Notes under the pieces: model-generated | What the model was told of the DNA's origin: nothing | What the model saw: only the letters and a program-made list of their open reading frames with translations | The model's database searches: none | Source of the DNA: a virus | Taxonomy: Duplodnaviria > Heunggongvirae > Uroviricota > Caudoviricetes | DNA: 54,213 bases | Virus record (IMG/VR): IMGVR_UViG_2721755676_000004 | Direction: 5' to 3' (one strand) | In this document: one piece after another, positions 1,142-31,315 of the stretch | How the letters are laid out: every line of letters starts with the position of its first letter | How positions within the stretch are numbered: position 1 is the stretch's first letter | Program-made: the position numbers and the translations under genes

Positions 1142-1238
1142 AAAATAATCTCGGTGTGAGATGCTTTACGTCTTCCAAGCCCCCTTCCTTGCCGTAAATG
1201 GAAAGATACATCTAATTATAGAATTTATATGTTTTACG

Positions 1239-1814
1239 CTACGGCAGTGCTGGCCATTCAATATCCTGTGAAGTTGACGTATCAACACGGTTCAGCAATA
1301 CCCGATACTTTTTCCATGCTTCCAGCAACGAGATTTCTTCCTCCGTTGCAATTTCCAGATCTGCAGCATCCTGAAGCGGCGCAATATGCTCACTGGCTAC
1401 CTGCATCAGGTTGTTTTTTGTTTCTTCCGCCTCCCGGATCCGGAACAGTTTTTCTGCTTCCGTATCCTTCACCCAGGCTGTGCCGTTCCACTTCTGAAAC
1501 TCCCCTTCCGGCGATAACCAGGTAACATTTTCCGGTAACGGACCGAGTTCAGAAATAAATAACGCGTCGCCGGAAGCCACGTCATAAACCGTTTTACCCC
1601 GATGATCTTCAACGAGATGCCACGATGCCTCATCACTGTTGAAAACAGCCACGAAGCCTGCCGGAATATCTGGCGGTGCAATATCGGTACTGTTTGCTGG
1701 CAGACCTGTATGAGGCGGAATATATGCATCACCTTCACCAATAAATTCATTAGTTCCGGCCAGCAGATTATAAATTGTTATGGTCCGTGGTTGTTCACTC
1801 ATTCTGAATACCAT
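1239..1814 (-). CDS. tfaR: Tail fibre assembly protein Tfa
   Basis: 191 aa; translation resembles lambdoid Tfa proteins; start overlaps stf stop (ATGA); immediately downstream of stf. Confidence 0.85.
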
Positions 1815-4800
1815 TATGCAAGCCTCACAATATAGTTAAATGCGATGTTTTTGACGGTGTTTTCCGCGTTACCAGCAGCGTTAACGGTGATGGTGTGTCC
1901 ATGTGAACCAATCGCAACGGAGTGCGTATGAGCACCAATACCGACAGTATGCGCGTGTGCACCTGCAGATGCTGCTGTGCCGGACAGTGAGTGGCTATGA
2001 TTACCATCTGTACTGGTATTAGCTAACCACCCCGTAGACATACCTACTGAGCCTTGTACACCCCAGGTATTTTGACCTGAGCTTGTATAACCATATTGAT
2101 AAGTATCTTTAAAAACACTGGGGTTAAATCGACGGCCATCTCTATGGCTGTGATTACCAGCTGCATTCGTGCTGCCACTTAAACTATGGGTATGCGCACC
2201 AGTGTTATTCGTGGATTTAGTGCCGTAATCAAACGACGATGTGGTTTTCGTCCCCAAATCCGTACTGGATGCGCTGGCGCTGTGGGTATGCGATTTAATG
2301 CCGTCCTGTTCCTGAGACAATACGGCCCGACCACTGGCAGGTTTGCCCTTAATCGTCCAGCCACGCATATCAGGGATCACGCCTGACGGATAAGCCGCTG
2401 CAAGTTTCGGGTATGCAGATTTGTCAAAAGTCTGCCCCTGCATCAGGGCATAGCCAGACGGAACGGTATCTGATGGCCACGGGATTGGTGCACCGACTGG
2501 ATAAAACTCTGCAGGAGGATGAGCCGAGGTGTAAAGCTGCGCCCACGGCGACCAGTTTGCGTCGGTCGTATCCCGTCGTGAACGAATAAATGCCGGAGCA
2601 TGAGCACCGCTTGTACCACTCCAGCCGATGAGTAACTCACCTTCGCCAACGGCTGTCATCCCTTTCAGGTGAATGATATTTCCATACGCTGTTGGATATC
2701 CGTTGTTATACACCTCGTATAACTCAAGACCTGTTGCCCCCTGCGTATTGTCTGTCAGCGCGGTTACCCGACCTTTTGAAGACAGATTAACTGATGATAC
2801 TGCTGTTCCACCTGACGGTAATGCCCCGATCTCTGATGCCGTTGGCTTATTTCTGGAGTTATAGTCCCTTCGCCAGCCAGGTGAATAATCTGTTCCGTGA
2901 TTAATATAGGTAAACTGGGCGTTAGTTGTTCCGCCACCAGTGGAGGTAGTCGGTGTGGTAATGCGGATCGTCATCGCTGACTTTATCCCCATTACTTCAA
3001 TGACAGCTCCTGCGAGATGAATATTACCGCAGCCAGTATCAGTAATGATTTTATTATTGCCATAAGACCAGGAACCCTTGCACATCCAGTATGGATGGTT
3101 AAATGCTCCCTGAGAATCCAGCCACTCGATAAACTGTGCAGTCGTCCAGTCTCCTGTTGTTGTGCTTACTGACCCACCGAAGGCACGGCTGGCACCAATA
3201 TTTTTCGTAAAGGTGTCTTTGCCAGGGATATCCGCACCGTTCTTATCTTTCTGCAGACGTTTCTCAGCATTGTCATTGGCTGCTTTTACTGCCTTTGGCG
3301 TTGCTGCCAGCGTTTCAGACGTGCTGTTGGTCGCGCTGCTTAGCTGGACTATCCCTTTCTGTGCTGTCGTTGCATCCTGTGCGGTGTATTTCCCGTCAGC
3401 CAGGTCATACGCGGCCTTAACTGCTTTTGGCGTTGCCGCCAGTGACTCGGAAGTGCTGTTGGTCGCACTGCTGAGCTGTACTATCCCCTTTTTCGTCGTG
3501 CTCGCATCCTCAAGCGCCACGGCGGATGCAATATCCTCTGCCCGTTTTGCCGCTGTCTCAGCGCGCGTTGCCGCGGATTCCGCCGTACTTTTGCTCTGTG
3601 CTGCCGCCGTCGCACTGCCAGCTGCCTCTGTCGCCTTCGTGGATGCTGTCGTGGCGCTGCCCTTCGCTGCTGACGCTTGTCTGGTCGCCTCATCTTTTGA
3701 AGCAGACGCAGATGATGCCGATGACGCCGCCGAACTGGCGGACGATGCGGCAGCCGTTTTTGAGGATTCTGCGCTGGTTTCCGACGCTTTCGCGTTCGTC
3801 TCGGATGTCTTCGCTGCGGAAGCAGACCTCGCTGCTGCGCTGGCCTGTTCAGTGGCTTCGCCAGCCTTCGTTGTGGCTGTTGAAGCAGACGATGCGGCAC
3901 TTTCTGCCGATTTTCCGGCGGCGGTGGCACTGGCTGAGGCCTGCCCGGCACTTGTTGACGCGGCACTGGCAGACGACGCAGCCGCTGTTTTTGAGCCTGC
4001 CGCAGCCGAGGCGCTCTGTCCCGCTGCCGTTTCAGAAGACCTGGCGTTTGTCTCAGACGTCTTTGCCGCCTTCGCGGAATTGCCTGCCGCCGTTGCCGAG
4101 GAAGCGGCACTACTGGCGCTTGATGATGCGTTCGTTTCTGATGATTTCGCTGCCTCTTTTGAGGCCGCCGCATCCCGGGCTGAGGTGGCTGCTTCTGACG
4201 CCTTCGTGGTCGCGGCGGATGCAGAAGTGGCTGCTGATTGTTGTGACGCTGCCGCATTCGTTTCTGACGTTTTCGCCGCAGCGGCACTGGTAGCTGCCGC
4301 GCTTTTTGAGGACTCTGCAGCAGCAGCACTTTTCGATGCTTCACTGGCCTTTGTTGATGCCGTTCCTGCGCTGGAAGATGCTGACTGAGCCGACGACGCG
4401 GCCTGTCCGGCTGACGTGCTGGCTGCGCGTGCTGAGCCTGCAGCATCAGTCGCATGGGTTGCCGCCTCACGTGCTGATGTGCCGGCATCGCTGGCTGACT
4501 TCTTCGCGGCTGCCGTGTTCTGTGCCACCGCGGACGCGTTACGCACCACCTCTTCCACCATCAGTTCAAAACGGCGCAGAGCCTCCGGACGGGCATCATC
4601 CTCCGTCATGGCACCGAGAAAATCATTCAGCGTACCGGGTTGAGAATCTTCATACACGGTGATGGTCCCGGCATGTGACGGCGGGAATCCTTCCACCAAC
4701 AGAATAACGCTGTACTGACCGTACTCAACGTCCATGCTGTAACGCCCGGCTTCATCCGGATTTTCTGAGGCCAGCGTGTTTACCACCACCGTGGTACTGT

Positions 4801-11085: not shown

Positions 11086-11423
11086 CAGATCACCACTTCG
11101 TCAAACTGACACGAAAAATCTGTATAGGTGATATGTTCTGTCGCTGACCACGTTCGACACACCACTCTGATTTTTCTGTTAATACCCGGCGGGCGCCAAA
11201 AAAAAGATTTATAGCCTTCATGCCGGGCTAAAAATTTTTCAAATGAATCACGTTCATTCGCCTCAACTTTGAAATCACAGGTGAAAACGCGCAGAGAATG
11301 ATTAAGTCCATTTGGACTTCGTTGCTCATAACCATCGCCAAATCTTACAGTTTTTATCGATGGTTTATTTTCTGTTTTCATTCCATCCTCTGGTAACCAG
11401 TGAAATTCTTCCGTATTAGCCAC
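11085..11423 (-). CDS. M: Minor tail protein M
   Basis: 112 aa; VRFGDGY motif as in lambda gpM; ATGA overlap with L. Confidence 0.8.
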
Positions 11424-14400
11424 TTAATATTCCCCCATCACGTCGCATATTTAACAGATTGCCCTGCACCCGCTGATCAACCATCCCCATAAGTGCTTTT
11501 ATTGCCTGAGGGCCAATCTCTCCATTCTGGCCGTCATTTTGAATAGTGATTTGGTATACAGGGGCATAGGTAATATCTCCGCCTCCATTACCACTTTTAC
11601 TATTAATAGCTCTGACACCAAGAGAACCATCGGAAGTTCGTGTTAATGGCATAATGGCTTCCGGTCCAGCCTCACCAAAAACACCAGCCCCTTTTGCAAA
11701 AGCAAAAAATTGCGGGGAATCATAAATACCGTTCGAATACGTGCTCAATGACGGAGACTCATAAACACCGCCCTTTGCATTCGGAATAAATTTACTAATA
11801 GCACTCCCGATAGTTCCTAAAATCTCCCCAGAAGAACTGTTACTAATGCTGTCGAAAATCCCAGTAATTGAAGCCTTTAATGCCATTCGACTAAGATCCG
11901 AAATCACGGAAGTAGCGAAAGAACGAAAATTTGCCTTGCCTGTCGTGACAAAATCACCCAGCGCATCGGTCATCCCATCAAACATCTGAGTCGTGGTTGA
12001 TTTTATCTGCTCACTGATATCCTTAGTGTCATCCAGCCAGTTATTGAATCCCTGGGAGGCACCACTAACCCAGTCTCCTGCCTGAATATCGAGTTGCTCG
12101 TTTTTCTGTCTGACAATTTCTTTTTCCCGTTCCAGAGCATCATTCAGAGCCTGCATTTTCTCTTGAAAAACATGATCTGACATTCCACGGGATTTATCTG
12201 CATAGTCACGTTCAAGTTGCAGACGCTGATTGTTATATCCATGTTCAATCCGCAGTAATTCCTGCTGGCGTTGCTGATTTTTATCGCCAACCCCATAACC
12301 AGCAATCTGAATATCATACCCCTGCTGACGATTATCAATCGAAGCCTGCAATGAATCACGCCATGCTGTTATTTCGGCGGATTCCTTGATTAGCCTGTTA
12401 TTCTTTTCAATCGCAACATTTTTCTCCATCAACGCGGTTATTTCTTCCCGGTGTAAGAGAAGCGATTTCTGATCCTGGGTTAATTTCGATGATGGTCGTG
12501 ACTCTAGGTCGGCAATCCGCTGACGCCACTTAACCAGTTCCTGTTCAGAGGAACTTAATTTAACGGTCAACTCAGCTTGTGAACTTAGTAACGCATTCTG
12601 TTGATTCAGATGATCAATCATTCGTTGGGCTGCATCATCAGAATAACCTTTCGCCTTTGGTTGCTTTGGATCTTTATAACGCTCATTTATTTGAGCGATA
12701 AGATTATTATATTCTTCCTTTGAATACTGATTCTTTAGCTTTTCCAGTTTTGCAAGTTCACTAGCTCTCTGCTGCTCCCGGGTCTGATATTGTTTTGAAA
12801 AGGCATCTGCTCTCTGTCTGAGTTCAATTCCTTCCTGTTGTCGCTTGTTGTAATCGTTTATTGATGAATTTAGTACGTCCTGAGCAATTTTTTCTGCTTG
12901 AAGTACGCCCAATTGCTGCTTTAATCGTGCCAGCCTTTTATTTTGAGCTCCGCCATCTCCAATGCCACCTAACCCGAAAACTCCGGGTCGGGTATTTTTT
13001 TCTATTTCATCAATTTGACGGAGAACATCTGAGATTTTTTGATCAAGGGAGGCCTCACGGCCAATATCCAGCATGGAATCCCATGCCCATTTTGCGGAGT
13101 CTGCGACAGCTTTCCATGCAGTCTCAAGATAACCAAGATTTTCTTTAATCTGGTTGGTGCGCTGGATCATTGAGGATGAGTATTCTTCTGTCGCAATGCG
13201 GGCGGCCTCCTGCTGGTTCCCTTCATCCTGTAGCGCCTTAATCTGGTTATAAGTCGCAAGTGTCAGAAAATGGTACTGATCATTAAGTTTTGATATGGCA
13301 CTGACAGGATCCTTTGCAATTTCATTGAAGTCATTAACCAGTTGTTCGGTTGATATTCCTGTTACTTCGCTCGTTTTTACTATCGCTGTCGTCACTTGCT
13401 CCAGCGAACTGCTCGCTACCTTTCCCGAACGCACAAGCTGATTTAATACTGCCGCCGCAGCACCAGTTGTCGAATCAGCCGCATTCCCGGCACGTTGAGC
13501 TATATCGCCCAATTGCCCGCTGGTTGTCCCCAACTGATTTCCGGTAAGAATAAGAGATTTATTAAATTCGTCCTGCTCCTGAGAGCCTTTATAGTAAGCC
13601 AGTCCTAAGACCCCAACGGCTGCTGCGGCCAGGGTAAAAGGATTAATTAATCCCAGCACATAAGAACCTACACCTTTGATCGCCGGGCCAATCCCACCGA
13701 ACATATCTTTTAGCTGGCCGCCCTGCTGCATTAACACCATAAATGGCGACTGACCAGTGGACAACCCAACAACAATATCCGTCATTTGTGCAGGCAACAT
13801 GCGCATAGCAAAAGCCGTTTGTTTTGCCGACATTCCGGTTTTGCTTAATTGTGATTGAGTAACCTCAAGCTCACTCCGCATAGCACGAAGTTTTCCAGAA
13901 AGCTCCTCATACATTTCAGGAGAAAGCATCCCCTTAGCTTTTGCTTCATTGAGCTGTTTCTGTTGTTCTACCAGACGATTAAAAGCAGTTCCGACAGGAT
14001 CAAGTTGAGCAATCAGACGTTGCAAAGCAACAACCTGTTCATCATGCGCTTTTGCTGCTTCTCGCTCTGCCTGAGCCTCTCCGGTAAGCTCTCGCCGTGT
14101 TTCCTGTATTTTTCGGCTATAATTCTCAAACTGAGAACCATTTATTTTCCCGGATGCAAACGCAGCATTAAGTTCATCATGCTGTTGTTCAAGATTTCTT
14201 AGCGCCGCAGCCAGAGGGTCGATCTTGTCCAGCATTCTTTGAAAGGCCTGAGCCTGCGCTTCCTGCTGGGCGGCAGCAAGTTTTCCGGCCTTCTCGGCTT
14301 CTCTCTGCGCTTGCGCAACCCCGCTCAATTCCTCTGTGGTTTCATTAAGTTTACGGACAAGAAATTCATATTCTTCTTTATCAATAAGCCCTTTATCGAA

Positions 14401-14649
14401 AAATTTCTTTAATTCAGAATAGCGTCGACCGACAGTATCAATTGCGGCACCAACTGGATCAATAGCTGCTTTTAATTTTGCGAGCGCGTTCTTCTCATCT
14501 TCTGTTGCCTTAGTCACTTTCCCTGCGCTATTTGCAGCAGTTTCCCCAGCCTGCGTCATTTTGACTAATGAGGAGGTCAGATTGTCAGCATTATTTTTCG
14601 CTCCAGTGCTATCAATAATTATTGCGAGACGCGAGGTTTGCTCTGCCAT
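11416..14649 (-). CDS. H: Tail tape measure protein
   Basis: 1077 aa; long coiled-coil N-terminal half, hydrophobic central segment, glycine-rich C-terminus; positioned between G/GT and M. Confidence 0.85.
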
Positions 14650-14814
14650 TTATTAAAACTCCTGACAACAAAAAACCCACCGCGAAGTGGGTTTCAGGCG
14701 ACATAATAGTAGATATAGCGATTACGAGGCCACGCAATGCTTTTCTCCAGGAGCATCATCGATTTAATTAAAGACACCATCACATCTCTGTAACAGAGTG
14801 TACGTAATTAACAA

Positions 14815-15135
14815 CTACACACACTGCTCCTGAAAATACTGGTCATCCAGTGCAAAGATCACTGCTTCAAATTCATCGCGCTCAATCAATACCGGATGAG
14901 TGGCTAAATATTCATTTATCTCTGTCAGAGATAAAGGCAAAGGCACCCCAGCCATTCCAGCATAACGTCGGGCACGGGATATTACCGAATAGGCGTACAA
15001 CAACTCCTTAAGCACCGGGTCTATTTCTGGTTCCGGTATCGGTGGCAACCTGAGTTTTTCTCGCTTCCATCTTGCCTTTTCCCCCCTTTCTCCCCCGAAC
15101 TCCGATAACCACCGCTGGGCAGCTATGGCTTTTTT
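14815..15135 (-). CDS. T-frame segment of tail assembly chaperone GT (-1 frameshift product)
   Basis: The -1 frame is open from the slippery site at 15129..15135 through to the stop at 14815; the annotated 77-aa ORF is only the part after the first in-frame start. Confidence 0.65.
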   Translation of the reverse strand, partial: KKAIAAQRWLSEFGGERGEKARWKREKLRLPPIPEPEIDPVLKELLYAYSVISRARRYAGMAGVPLPLSLTEINEYLATHPVLIERDEFEAVIFALDDQYFQEQCV

Positions 15136-15584
15136 ATCGTATCCTGCTTCTGCTGCTCTTTACCCTGGGCGATGCTGGCTGCTTCTGCAAGGATCTGCCA
15201 GTACAACTCTGGATTCTGCTTAAGCAGCGCGATCCCTCGTTCTGCCGTATATTCCAGTGCAACCTCAACACCATTAACCAGTTCACCAACCCCTTTCCAG
15301 TCTTTCAGCAGATAACGAGCGGCATTATCAATGAGTAAATCATCAACAGAATCCACCTCGGAAACCTTTGAAATATCAAACTCCTTCGTTCCGACGTGCA
15401 AACTGGCATCCATTTTCTCAATGTGGCGACGGATTAATGCATTACGGGAGCGATACTGATCGTTATCGCTGCTTGCCACCAACAGTTTTAACCCGTCTAC
15501 AGGTTTTAAGTCCTTCATTGGCGTAAACCAGCGTTCTCCACCAATGATAATTTTCTGATTAAGAATAAACATCCATAACCTCAT
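15123..15584 (-). CDS. Tail assembly chaperone G
   Basis: 153-aa acidic protein between major tail protein and tape measure; ends just after the slippery heptamer. Confidence 0.7.
   Translation of the reverse strand: MRLWMFILNQKIIIGGERWFTPMKDLKPVDGLKLLVASSDNDQYRSRNALIRRHIEKMDASLHVGTKEFDISKVSEVDSVDDLLIDNAARYLLKDWKGVGELVNGVEVALEYTAERGIALLKQNPELYWQILAEAASIAQGKEQQKQDTIKKP
15129..15135 (-). promoter_or_regulatory. Programmed -1 ribosomal frameshift slippery heptamer A AAA AAG (G to GT)
   Basis: Minus-strand sequence ACG ATA AAA AAG CCA TAG; shifting -1 at AAAAAAG joins the G frame to the T frame. Confidence 0.65.
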
Positions 15585-15632
15585 TCAATGCGTCCCCCTG
15601 TAGGGCAGTACCACAGGAGGAATAACGGAAAA

Positions 15633-16595
15633 TCAACTAATCGCCTCAGCACTGGCTTTTGCGATCACGGCAGCCGGGGAATTTTTTTTTCTGGTTATCG
15701 TAGGTGCTTCATCTGCTGCGGTAATGCTCAATTGAACCTGGATAATGTCGCTATTACCCCCATCAGGCCATTCACCTGACACCTGAACCTTCGGGAAACT
15801 GAAAGTGTATGCCCCCTCTCCATTCGAAAGCGTGAAGCTGAACGGAACTGTTTCTCCAGTCAGTGTTTTACTCCAGATTTCCCACGCGGCTTTAGACCAT
15901 GAAAGCGTCACCGTACCGGACGGTGTAAAAGTAGTCGGAATATTTGCTCCTGCATAAGGCGAGCCAGTCCCGATACAACGCTGTGTCTGGAGTTTGTTAT
16001 CGAACTGAATATCAAAACTGTCGATACAAAAACCGTTACCTCCGGCAACACCATTCAGGCTTACTGCTGAAACCTCCTTAAACGAATAACGTAGCTTTCC
16101 TGCACTATCCACAGGTTCGCCTTTGATAAAATTCGTATCATCGGCCTTTGATTCCCAGTCCAGTCCGGCAAAGGTTACGGTCGCTGTAATATCGCCGTCG
16201 TTAGGGATCTGCATTTTCCATGAGCCAACCTGCGCTCCTCTGACGACAGAGGCAATTCCGACATCGGACGCATAGGTCGCCAGAGAAAATGTTATTCGCT
16301 CATTCCCCATTGTCAGAGAATCGCCTGACCATTCCGCGCCGAAACAGGATGCAAGAAAATCATCATGTTGACCCCAGCGAAATTTGGTACCAACATCACC
16401 GCCGACATCCACAGTGCCAGGCGTCGCCCCCTGAGCCATCCGGGAGCCACCAATCTCATTATTTTCGCCTTTATTCTGGGTGGGTTTTACTCCCCAGCTT
16501 GTGCGTTTTAATAAACTCCAGTCACCACTTGCTGGCGTAGTGCCTGCAACCGTCTCCCGGATAAATGCCGAGATAACCTTTGCACCTGAACTCAC
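15633..16595 (-). CDS. Major tail protein (V-like, C-terminal Ig-like extension)
   Basis: 320 aa; position immediately upstream of G/GT; Gly/Ser/Thr-rich composition; family assigned by position. Confidence 0.75.
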   Translation of the reverse strand: MSSGAKVISAFIRETVAGTTPASGDWSLLKRTSWGVKPTQNKGENNEIGGSRMAQGATPGTVDVGGDVGTKFRWGQHDDFLASCFGAEWSGDSLTMGNERITFSLATYASDVGIASVVRGAQVGSWKMQIPNDGDITATVTFAGLDWESKADDTNFIKGEPVDSAGKLRYSFKEVSAVSLNGVAGGNGFCIDSFDIQFDNKLQTQRCIGTGSPYAGANIPTTFTPSGTVTLSWSKAAWEIWSKTLTGETVPFSFTLSNGEGAYTFSFPKVQVSGEWPDGGNSDIIQVQLSITAADEAPTITRKKNSPAAVIAKASAEAIS

Positions 16596-29711: not shown

Positions 29712-29802
29712 TAGACTGGCCCCCTGAATCTCCAGACAACCAGTATCACTTATTTAAGTGATAGTCTTAATACTAGTTTTTAGACTAGTCATTGGAGAGC
29801 AG

Positions 29803-30168
29803 ATGATTGATGTCTTAGGACCGGAGAAACGCAGACGGCGTACCACACAGGAAAAGATCGCAATTGTTCAGCAGAGCTTTGAACCGGGGATGACGGTCTC
29901 CCTCGTTGCCCGGCAACATGGTGTAGCAGCCAGCCAGTTATTTCTCTGGCGTAAGCAATACCAGGAAGGAAGTCTTACTGCTGTCGCCGCCGGAGAACAG
30001 GTTGTTCCTGCCTCTGAACTTGCTGCCGCCATGAAGCAGATTAAAGAACTCCAGCGCCTGCTCGGCAAGAAAACGATGGAAAATGAACTCCTCAAAGAAG
30101 CCGTTGAATATGGACGGGCAAAAAAGTGGATAGCGCACGCGCCCTTATTGCCCGGGGATGGGGAGTAA
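29803..30168 (+). CDS. insC: IS2 transposase OrfA (InsC)
   Basis: 121 aa from [13 protein letters not shown]; HTH; A AAA AAG slippery site at 30120..30126 near its end. Confidence 0.85.
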
Positions 30169-31031
30169 GCTTAGTCAGCCGTTGTCTCCGGGTGTCGCGT
30201 GCGCAGTTGCACGTCATTCTCAGACGAACCGATGACTGGATGGATGGCCGCCGCAGTCGTCACACTGATGATACGGATGTGCTTCTCCGTATACACCATG
30301 TTATCGGAGAGCTGCCCACGTATGGTTATCGTCGGGTATGGGCGCTGCTTCGCAGACAGGCAGAACTTGATGGTATGCCTGCGATCAATGCCAAACGTGT
30401 TTACCGGATCATGCGCCAGAATGCGCTGTTGCTTGAGCGAAAACCTGCTGTACCGCCATCGAAACGGGCACATACAGGCAGAGTGGCTGTGAAAGAAAGT
30501 AATCAGCGATGGTGCTCTGACGGGTTCGAGTTCCGCTGTGATAACGGAGAAAAACTGCGAGTCACGTTCGCGCTGGACTGCTGTGACCGTGAGGCACTGC
30601 ACTGGGCGGTCACTACGGGCGGCTTCAACAGTGAAACAGTACAGGACGTCATGCTGGGAGCGGTGGAACGCCGCTTCGGCAACGAGCTTCCGGCGTCTCC
30701 AGTAGAGTGGCTGACGGATAATGGTTCATGCTACCGGGCTAATGAAACACGGCAGTTTGCCCGGATGTTGGGGCTTGAACCGAAGAGCACGGCGGTGCGG
30801 AGTCCGGAGAGTAACGGCATAGCAGAGAGCTTCGTGAAAACGATAAAGCGTGACTACATCAGTGTCATGCCCAAACCAGACGGGTTAACGGCAGCAAAGA
30901 ACCTTGCAGAGGCGTTCGAGCATTATAACGAATGGCATCCGCATAGTGCACTGGGTTATCGCTCGCCACGGGAATATCTACGGCAGCAAGCCAGTAATGG
31001 GTTAAGTGATAACAGGTGTCTGGAAATATAG
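30126..31031 (+). CDS. insD: IS2 transposase OrfB (InsD), DDE catalytic domain
   Basis: 301 aa in the -1 frame relative to insC; rve/DDE-type integrase core. Confidence 0.85.
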
Positions 31032-31042
31032 GGGCAAATCCA

Positions 31043-31315
31043 TTTGATGTACGGGTTAATTTGTCTGGCGACCGTGGCAAGGTCTTTATTCAAGAGTGTT
31101 TTGCATTCTGCTTTGGTATACGTTTTACCGAGCATGATGTCTTTTCCTGTATGCCCGTGACATACAGTCCATACACCAACAATATCTTTGTATGGTATGT
31201 AGCTGACACCTTCCAGACCATCGTTACCACTTGGGCCAGTGATTAACACTGATGCTATAGCAATTGCTCCGCCACCAATAGCAGCAGCAACGACTTTTCG
31301 TAATGATGGAGGCAT
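31043..31315 (-). pseudogene. SAR endolysin, N-terminal fragment (IS2-disrupted)
   Basis: [27 protein letters not shown]... signal-anchor-release domain as in phage 21 R; frame continues into IS2 right end after INPYIK. Confidence 0.85.

Follow-up and report, generated by a model that had tools for sequence, protein, structure and literature searches.

A putative lambda-type -1 frameshift site, A AAA AAG, in the tail assembly chaperone locus of a Rac-type Escherichia coli prophage

The programmed -1 frameshift that joins the tail assembly chaperone genes G and T of phage lambda is the described system closest to the locus analyzed here (Levin, Hendrix and Casjens 1993; Xu, Hendrix and Duda 2004, 2013, 2014, all as cited in PMC5009743). 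In lambda, the tape measure protein is bound by the G part and the major tail protein by the T part, G and GT are made at a ratio of about 30:1, and it is usual for such tail chaperones to share no sequence similarity (PMC5009743). In systems of this type, by which long-tailed phages obtain a short and a long chaperone from one pair of genes, the two proteins are described as being made at a fixed low GT:G ratio, as necessary for tail assembly and as missing from virions (Xu et al. 2004). Two HK97-like chaperone genes showed 6-7% frameshifting in E. coli (PMC3711429). The heptamer AAAAAAG is listed for the G/GT genes of VT1-Sakai, psiM2, PVL, PV83, ul36 and a Borrelia prophage (PMC3483164, citing Xu et al. 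2004), and it is present at the chaperone junction of Paenibacillus (larvae) phages (PMC6003738). A_AAA_AAG is among the most shift-prone sequences of E. coli, because the single tRNA-Lys of this bacterium pairs better with AAA than with AAG, and CC is the most shift-prone 3' context tested for it (PMC5009743). The same heptamer serves dnaX, where a Shine-Dalgarno-like sequence lies 5' and a stem-loop 3' of it, and where about half of the ribosomes shift (PMC3711429).

Here we describe a locus on a stretch of viral DNA of 54,213 nucleotides, which we refer to as the window. It forms the tail module of a Rac-type E. coli siphovirus prophage. According to the ORF list and to Pfam and PHROG matches, the minus strand carries first the tube gene, then G, then T, which is in the -1 frame, and finally the tape measure gene. 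The features concerned are the following:

15633..16595, minus strand: tail tube (major tail) protein gene, directly 5' of G (PF18906 Phage_tube_2, E 9.4e-32)
15123..15572, minus strand: gene G, zero-frame tail assembly chaperone of 149 aa (phrog_313), 'ydaY' in E. coli annotation
15160..15162, minus strand: -1-frame TAA that closes the -1 frame on its 5' side (sequence reading)
15129..15135, minus strand: slippery heptamer A AAA AAG, placed by position and phase in G, 3 nt 5' of the G stop
14815..15135, minus strand: T segment, -1 frame, from the heptamer to TAG 14817..14815, 106 codons, predicted to be made solely as the C-terminal part of GT (phrog_1189)
14815..15572, minus strand: predicted GT fusion, 252 aa from the Met at 15572 (256 aa from 15584)
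11416..14649, minus strand: tape measure protein gene, 3' of T (PF06791 TMP_2, E 1.4e-81)

The tape measure gene also matches the lambda tape-measure C-terminal domain (PF09718, E 4.4e-26) and phrog_24. The prophage copy in the window has an IS2 inserted in its lysozyme gene, and it may perhaps never be expressed productively.

The protein families of the locus were assigned by profile comparison. G alone matches phrog_313, 'Tail assembly chaperone', with E 4e-46 and 158.7 bits over profile positions 13-149 of 258. The predicted GT fusion matches the same profile in one stretch, positions 13-246 of 258, with 174.4 bits and E 6.3e-51; compared with G alone the score rises by 16 bits and the end of the match moves from position 149 to position 246. 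This suggests that the phrog_313 profile takes in fused relatives, with which the GT predicted here would be collinear. The T segment alone matches phrog_1189, a family of unknown function with 86 positions, with E 1.4e-36, and it scores 20.6 bits (E 4.9e-4) against PF23812 Phage_TAC_18, which is below the gathering cut-off of 27 bits; 4 of 12 diverse T segments match the latter family at E <= 0.01. G gave no match above threshold in the local copy of Pfam-A and none in NCBIfam, and all G homologues in a large protein database carry the tag PF27119, a family absent from the results of the local Pfam scan. When homologues of G were sought a second time, by profile, the same close family alone came up and the alignment became no deeper, and no relative of G, T or GT was found among the solved structures of the PDB by sequence or by profile. 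The AlphaFold2 model of G, built on an alignment of 17 sequences, had a mean pLDDT of 44, too low for a fold search.

The longest ORF of G, 15584..15123, encodes 153 aa. The coordinates given by the sequence-only reading are all right, but the start at 15584 is probably not the one that is used, and the real start is probably ATG 15572..15570, which yields 149 aa. GAGG lies 6 nt 5' of this ATG, Met5 of the 153-aa ORF is invariant and is the N-terminal residue in most homologues, and GenBank ON032529 carries a 450-nt G CDS annotated with the ATG 15572 start. As for the other end of the gene, the minus-strand reading of 14700..15700 bears out the earlier description of a G-like ORF ending in ACG ATA AAA AAG CCA TAG, the last codons being ...CAG GAT ACG ATA AAA AAG CCA TAG. 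The heptamer AAAAAAG occupies 15135..15129, and because it begins on the third base of the ATA codon it has the X_XXY_YYZ phase that tandem -1 slippage needs; both its position and its phase are thus those of the canonical -1 slippery site that had been proposed. Within G it is followed by CCA, that is, by a 3' CC, and then by the zero-frame TAG at 15125..15123.

From the heptamer, the -1 frame reads KKAIAAQRWLSEFGGERGEKARWKREKLRLPPIPEPEID...QEQCV and ends after 106 codons at TAG 14817..14815, and the predicted GT junction is ...QDTIKK/AIAAQRWLSEF..., with the slash marking the shift. The claim that this frame is open from the heptamer to 14815 therefore holds, although the open stretch begins earlier, at 15159, and extends from 34 nt 5' of the G stop to 102 codons 3' of it. 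Since the -1 frame is closed on its 5' side by the TAA at 15162..15160, a productive -1 shift is confined to the 34 nt of 15159..15126. A AAA AAG at 15135..15129 is the sole canonical slippery site in this overlap, and a search of the same 34 nt for another in-phase X_XXY_YYZ that might serve as an alternative shift site found none. The +1 frame beyond the G stop was considered as an alternative and rejected, being short and not conserved. T has no initiation signal of its own at the overlap with G, and a search for ATG, GTG or TTG in the -1 frame, beginning at the heptamer, found none before TTG 15048, which lies 29 codons further on.

How often would such a site occur by chance? The bare sequence AAAAAAG is common: counting both strands, the window contains 24 copies, and shuffles contain 14.7 +/- 3.6. 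In phase, A AAA AAG is rare: it occupies 3 of the 14,244 codon positions of the 43 long ORFs of the window, one of the three being the site in G and another the site in the IS2 transposase. A stretch of 11 codons would contain an in-phase A AAA AAG by chance with a probability of about 0.2%, and any in-phase X_XXY_YYZ in which Y is A or T with a probability of about 3%.

The locus has several characteristics in common with lambda. Two overlapping ORFs lie between the major tail and tape measure genes, the second one, which is read in the -1 frame, lacks its own start, and an in-phase heptamer is located near the end of G with no RNA stimulator. On the other hand, the heptamer is A AAA AAG, 3 nt before the stop, whereas direct reading of lambda gives G GGA AAG, and T has 106 codons here and 144 in lambda. 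Comparison of the G and T family alignments with lambda G and T by hhalign returned a probability of 0.1%, i.e., no detectable homology to gpG or gpT, and the Pfam scan of the locus returned no lambda-type G or T family. The locus has every sequence-level characteristic of a lambda-type system (Xu et al. 2004). The sequence-only reading was right that the heptamer differs from that of lambda, but the difference is unremarkable, as A AAA AAG has been listed for other G/GT genes and is not new in them. Burkholderia phage AH2 has the same heptamer in its G/GT genes. In VT1-Sakai, whose lambda-like G gene we read directly, the end is ...TC A AAA AAG CAT TCG AAG GCG AGC TGA, so that the heptamer is 15 nt before the stop instead of 3 nt; G and T of VT1-Sakai are annotated as lambda-like, and a protein search with the GT fusion of the present locus did not return the VT1-Sakai record.

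To compare the site across relatives, we took related loci from viral contigs and from genomes chosen one per species, and located in each the column homologous to the heptamer. The 249 usable loci reduce to 65 distinct 130-nt contexts, with 55-100% protein identity, from Escherichia, Citrobacter, Klebsiella, Raoultella, Siccibacter, Serratia, Pantoea, Scandinavium and other genera. The two-frame layout is present in 65 of the 65 contexts and a canonical heptamer at the homologous column in 64. The column reads A AAA AAG in 61 contexts and G GGA AAG, the heptamer of lambda, in three (Raoultella L011, Serratia L014 and Pantoea L015), and in one, from Pectobacterium (L013), it reads G GGG AAG. 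This family is thus a clean case of heptamer exchange at the same codons within one family, with both A AAA AAG and G GGA AAG in use. Where GTA AAA AAG has become GTG GGA AAG, Val-Lys-Lys is replaced by Val-Gly-Lys and the slipperiness is kept; a change that alters the protein and retains the slippery property is what selection on a recoding signal predicts. The last three bases of the heptamer do not vary in the 65 contexts, and its synonymous positions have variabilities of 0.06, 0.015 and 0, compared with 0.27-0.32 at neighbouring third positions.

Variation on the two sides of the site points to the same event. On the 5' side, the mean variability at zero-frame codon positions 1, 2 and 3 is 0.04, 0.08 and 0.27, and on the 3' side it is 0.11, 0.10 and 0.32 at positions 1, 2 and 3 of the -1 frame. 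The excess of third-position variability thus moves from the zero frame to the -1 frame, which indicates that the coding frame changes at the heptamer. The -1-frame peptide A[IL][EA]AQxWLxEFGGExGEKAKWxREKL is conserved beginning with the codon that directly follows the heptamer. Depending on the lineage, the distance from the heptamer to the zero-frame stop on its 3' side is 3, 21, 75 or 105 nt, and apart from two evidently damaged copies every relative has an open -1 frame of about 102-121 codons. The -1-frame TAA, which is part of GGT AAA, is missing in relatives that have GGA, GGC or GGG AAA. Gene order, the phrog_313 match, the conservation of the site and of the two-frame layout in the 65 contexts, and the presence of a nearly or fully identical G/T region in isolated phages all support the G/GT frameshift reading proposed from the sequence, and we consider it highly probable that the GT fusion would be made by -1 ribosomal frameshifting at A AAA AAG 15135..15129.

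The -1 frame could also be expressed in another way, namely as a separate small T protein that starts at TTG 15048 or at a later GTG, in which case the heptamer would be incidental. Such a start would agree with the stand-alone 'hypothetical protein' of 61-66 aa annotated in GenBank and RefSeq, with phrog_1189, whose 86 positions span the T part only, and with the purine-rich GGGGGAGAAAGGGGGGAAAAGG 5' of TTG 15048, which resembles a Shine-Dalgarno sequence. However, the stretch of 29 codons that separates the heptamer from TTG 15048 encodes a conserved -1 peptide and contains no ATG, GTG or TTG, and its third-position variation fits the -1 frame. A separate T would likewise leave unexplained why a canonical heptamer is kept, or swapped for another, in 64 of 65 contexts, and why GT is collinear with the 258-position chaperone profile. 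We therefore regard a separately initiated T as very improbable.

Alternatively, the shift might take place in the transcript, if RNA polymerase inserted an extra A in the A-run and the resulting mRNA were translated normally. The site does contain a run of six A, and polymerase is known to slip on homopolymer A runs (PMC1088944). Six is nevertheless short of the length of about nine nucleotides at which runs are counter-selected in most bacteria (PMC1088944), and the relatives with G GGA AAG have just three G followed by three A, which favours tRNA re-pairing over slippage of the polymerase. Transcriptional slippage seems to us slightly less probable still than an independent start of T. Finally, that G and T are one former gene, broken by a frameshift mutation or by a sequencing error in the A-run and now a pseudogene of a decaying prophage, can be given almost no credence: homopolymer indels do occur in public assemblies (the copies P0002 and P0027 are one A short), copy P0009 is an in-frame G-T fusion and the prophage carries the IS2 insertion, but all 65 contexts, from several genera, have the two-frame layout, as do isolated phages, the zero-frame stop moves between lineages while the -1 frame remains open, and P0009, the only in-frame fusion seen, results from a 35-nt deletion between two 10-nt direct repeats and is not ancestral.

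Returning to ribosomal frameshifting at the heptamer, we searched for elements that could stimulate it. The 109 nt 3' of the heptamer fold no better than shuffled sequences (z = 0.06). Among 17 diverse relatives, the mean z against shuffles was 0.18, 0.39 and -0.19 for the 35, 50 and 90 nt 3' of the heptamer, respectively, and RNAalifold on 10 sequences gave a consensus of -2.7 kcal/mol with zero covariation. A local hairpin formed by CCAUAGCUGCC and GGUGGUUAUCGG directly 3' of the heptamer in the window was rejected, as its z is about -1 and it is not conserved. We also rejected a G-quadruplex in the purine-rich tract 16-60 nt 3' of the heptamer: no relative has a three-tier motif there, and two-tier motifs, present in 10 of the 17 relatives, vary in position and are about as frequent in composition-matched shuffles. 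On the 5' side, no Shine-Dalgarno sequence was found at a stimulatory distance from the heptamer. The sole candidate, AGGA, ends 6 nt 5' of the heptamer, which is the wrong spacing, and it is missing in L012, L013 and L014. Larsen et al. reportedly found in 1994 that stimulation of -1 shifting by a Shine-Dalgarno sequence is optimal at a spacing of about 10-14 nt, and the spacing in dnaX is 10 nt. Considering that there is neither an RNA structure nor a well-placed Shine-Dalgarno sequence, the signal resembles that of lambda, i.e., the heptamer alone, and not that of dnaX.

This has consequences for the labels that the sequence-only reading had attached to the heptamer. The dnaX-type label is correct insofar as the heptamer is identical and both sites rely on the single E. 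coli tRNA-Lys, but the likeness ends there: the dnaX stimulators, the stem-loop and the well-spaced Shine-Dalgarno sequence, are absent, and the shifted product is the shorter protein in dnaX and the longer one, GT, here. The IS-type label has a basis within the window itself, although it points to nothing new for G/GT genes. The IS2 copy has an in-phase A AAA AAG at 30120..30126 on the plus strand, 39 nt before the orfA stop, after which the -1 frame is open for 303 codons. In the locus, as in the orfA/orfB genes of the IS3 family, the upstream ORF has an in-phase A AAA AAG close to its end and a long -1 extension follows, while the proteins, a transposase and a virion assembly chaperone, are unrelated.

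By analogy with lambda, expression of the locus would proceed as follows. Most ribosomes would translate G from 15572 to 15126 and stop at TAG 15125..15123, giving the 149-aa chaperone, many copies of which would coat the tape measure protein as lambda gpG does. In a minority of ribosomes, with AAA and AAG in the P and A sites, both tRNA-Lys would re-pair with AAA AAA one base back, after which GCC ATA GCT and the following -1-frame codons would be read up to TAG 14817..14815, yielding the 252-aa GT. The T domain of GT, like lambda gpT, would recruit the tube protein to the complex of tape measure protein and chaperone. With the heptamer alone as the signal, the expected yield of GT would be a few per cent and not the roughly 50% of dnaX. 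Such a yield is reasonable in view of the 6-7% of the HK97-like genes (PMC3711429) and the ratio of about 30:1 in lambda (PMC5009743). The analysis shows the layout of the sequence, the family to which G belongs, the conservation of the site, the change of coding frame and the lack of RNA structure; we infer from these and from lambda that the shift occurs, how efficient it is and what the G and T parts bind.

It should be noted that the canonical heptamer does not extend to every relative. Remote relatives, with about 32% identity, in phages of Pseudomonas and Acinetobacter share the two-frame layout, and where the frames meet they have a shifty ..A AAG. The junction of Acinetobacter phage TCUAN1 is an in-phase G GGA AAG, that of Pseudomonas phage Aurca01 is G GAA AAG, and that of Erwinia phage Gungnir39 is C GCA AAG, followed at once by TAA. 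Taking the family and these remote relatives together, the A-site half, A_AAG, is the only universal part, and the P-site half varies between AAA, GGA, GGG, GCA and GAA. The non-canonical sites (G GGG AAG, C GCA AAG TAA and G GAA AAG) imply that tandem slippage of two tRNAs is not the whole story across the family. We therefore also considered whether the essential event could be the slip of one tRNA, tRNA-Lys on A_AAG, a reading that is suggested by the invariance of A_AAG alone, the variable P-site half and the lack of an RNA stimulator, and to which we assign a small, though not trivial, likelihood. If it were true, lineages could tune the ratio of G to GT by changing which codon stands in the P site and how far away the zero-frame stop lies, and, as a side consequence, the K-12 Rac remnant, with its identical heptamer and T frame, would hold a recoding site that is missing from the annotation and is perhaps active even now.

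The locus is an unannotated member of a well-known type of system with an ordinary mechanism. Biologically it is a textbook case, to which confirmation would add little, and its practical value lies in annotation: in E. coli genomes and several phage records, ydaY is to be read as the G of a G/GT pair and its neighbour as T. No CDS joining G and T was present among the database records inspected, and a literature search on ydaY or on frameshifting in Rac found nothing relevant. Gurvich et al. are said to have surveyed A_AAA_AAG in the genes of E. coli K-12 in 2003. The inspected records call G "protein YdaY" or "hypothetical protein", and one RefSeq record has a "protein YdaY" of 119 aa that begins at an internal Met; T is either a separate 'hypothetical protein' of 61-66 aa or absent. 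A search of 5,426 complete E. coli genomes found the module in about 1,074, and the 1.1-kb G/T region is 100% identical in Salmonella phage SPF_0923 and 97.9% identical in nine vB_EcoS phages. K-12 retains, at 100% identity, the final 875 nt of the 1,101-nt query as the ydaY / ynaA remnant, which includes the heptamer and T. The gene name ydaY comes from this truncated remnant, and recognition of the gene as G would correct it.

At the position homologous to the G-T shift site, where the predicted -1 frameshift joins the tail assembly chaperone gene G to the overlapping segment T, several relatives carry non-canonical sites, as follows:

L013 (Pectobacterium odoriferum), about 2918-2926: G GGG AAG, in the context GTG GGG AAG
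L256 (Erwinia phage Gungnir39), end of the CDS 1201..1695: C GCA AAG, directly followed by TAA
L255 (Pseudomonas phage Aurca01), about 1590-1600: G GAA AAG

Because the sole element common to these sites is A_AAG, their sequences suggest that slippage of a single tRNA-Lys may operate in these members. In the case of Gungnir39, the arrangement further suggests that the neighbouring stop codon, TAA, would help such slippage.

A joined G-T CDS is present in none of the GenBank/RefSeq records inspected (L260, L001, L002 and L255-L258). In the RefSeq record of E. coli DX6 (L260, NZ_CP126345), the two genes are annotated as separate CDSs:

1719..2078: G, named "protein YdaY", which begins at an internal Met and has a length of 119 aa versus 149 aa
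2186..2386: T, a separate hypothetical protein

In Acinetobacter phage TCUAN1 (L257), T lacks any annotation. Both the name YdaY and the shortened gene model seem to go back to the Rac remnant of K-12, in which the 5' part is deleted.

The E. coli assembly NB16F79 encodes an in-frame G-T fusion of 240 aa (protein P0009), with the junction ..QILAEA|GYDKKAIAAQ... Near its end, G in the window contains two 10-nt direct repeats, 35 nt apart:

15188..15179, minus strand: GCAGAAGCAG, first copy
15153..15144, minus strand: GCAGAAGCAG, second copy

The P0009 junction fits a deletion between these repeats and, in a strain with this type of fusion, a GT-like protein would be the sole product. In two other proteins from public assemblies, P0002 and P0027, the A-run is shorter by one A, reading ..DTIKSHS.., and in the related locus L055 a G-run downstream is shorter by one G; such variants reflect either genuine mutation of homopolymers, in prophages that are decaying, or errors in the assemblies. 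Finally, several E. coli assemblies have chimeric ORFs (P0045, P0012, P0013 and P0016) that join unrelated N-terminal parts, for instance the ParB-like YnaK region, to the last two thirds of G, and these mark differing deletion end-points of Rac-type remnants, like that of K-12.

Another homopolymer is located upstream of G, in the tail tube gene:

15682..15690, minus strand: run of nine A at the 3' end of the tube gene (15633..16595), about 45 nt before its stop

At this length, slippage in transcription or replication begins to be appreciable. The longest A-run in the homologous region is 6, 7, 8 or 9 among related loci, and most of the more distant relatives lack an A-run there; for these reasons, the run does not look programmed. 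In E. coli DX6, PGAP marks the tube gene as "frameshifted".

Downstream of T, a gap of 165 nt (14650..14814) lies between its stop and the start of the tape measure gene. This gap contains no ORF of at least 50 aa and is longer than those between the other tail genes, which are tightly spaced.

Elsewhere, the window contains an insertion sequence, a putative IS2 by its resemblance to InsC/InsD:

29758..31031, plus strand: IS2-like element, orfA 136 aa and orfB 301 aa
29482..29739, minus strand: lysozyme-like ORF fragment
30956..31315, minus strand: lysozyme-like ORF fragment

Since lysozyme-like fragments lie on both flanks, the element appears to be inserted within the prophage lysozyme gene, and this prophage copy is therefore probably defective in lysis. 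The element has its own in-phase A AAA AAG (30120..30126, plus strand), with the orfA stop 39 nt further on and the -1 frame open for 303 codons, and thus both classic uses of this heptamer are present in the window.
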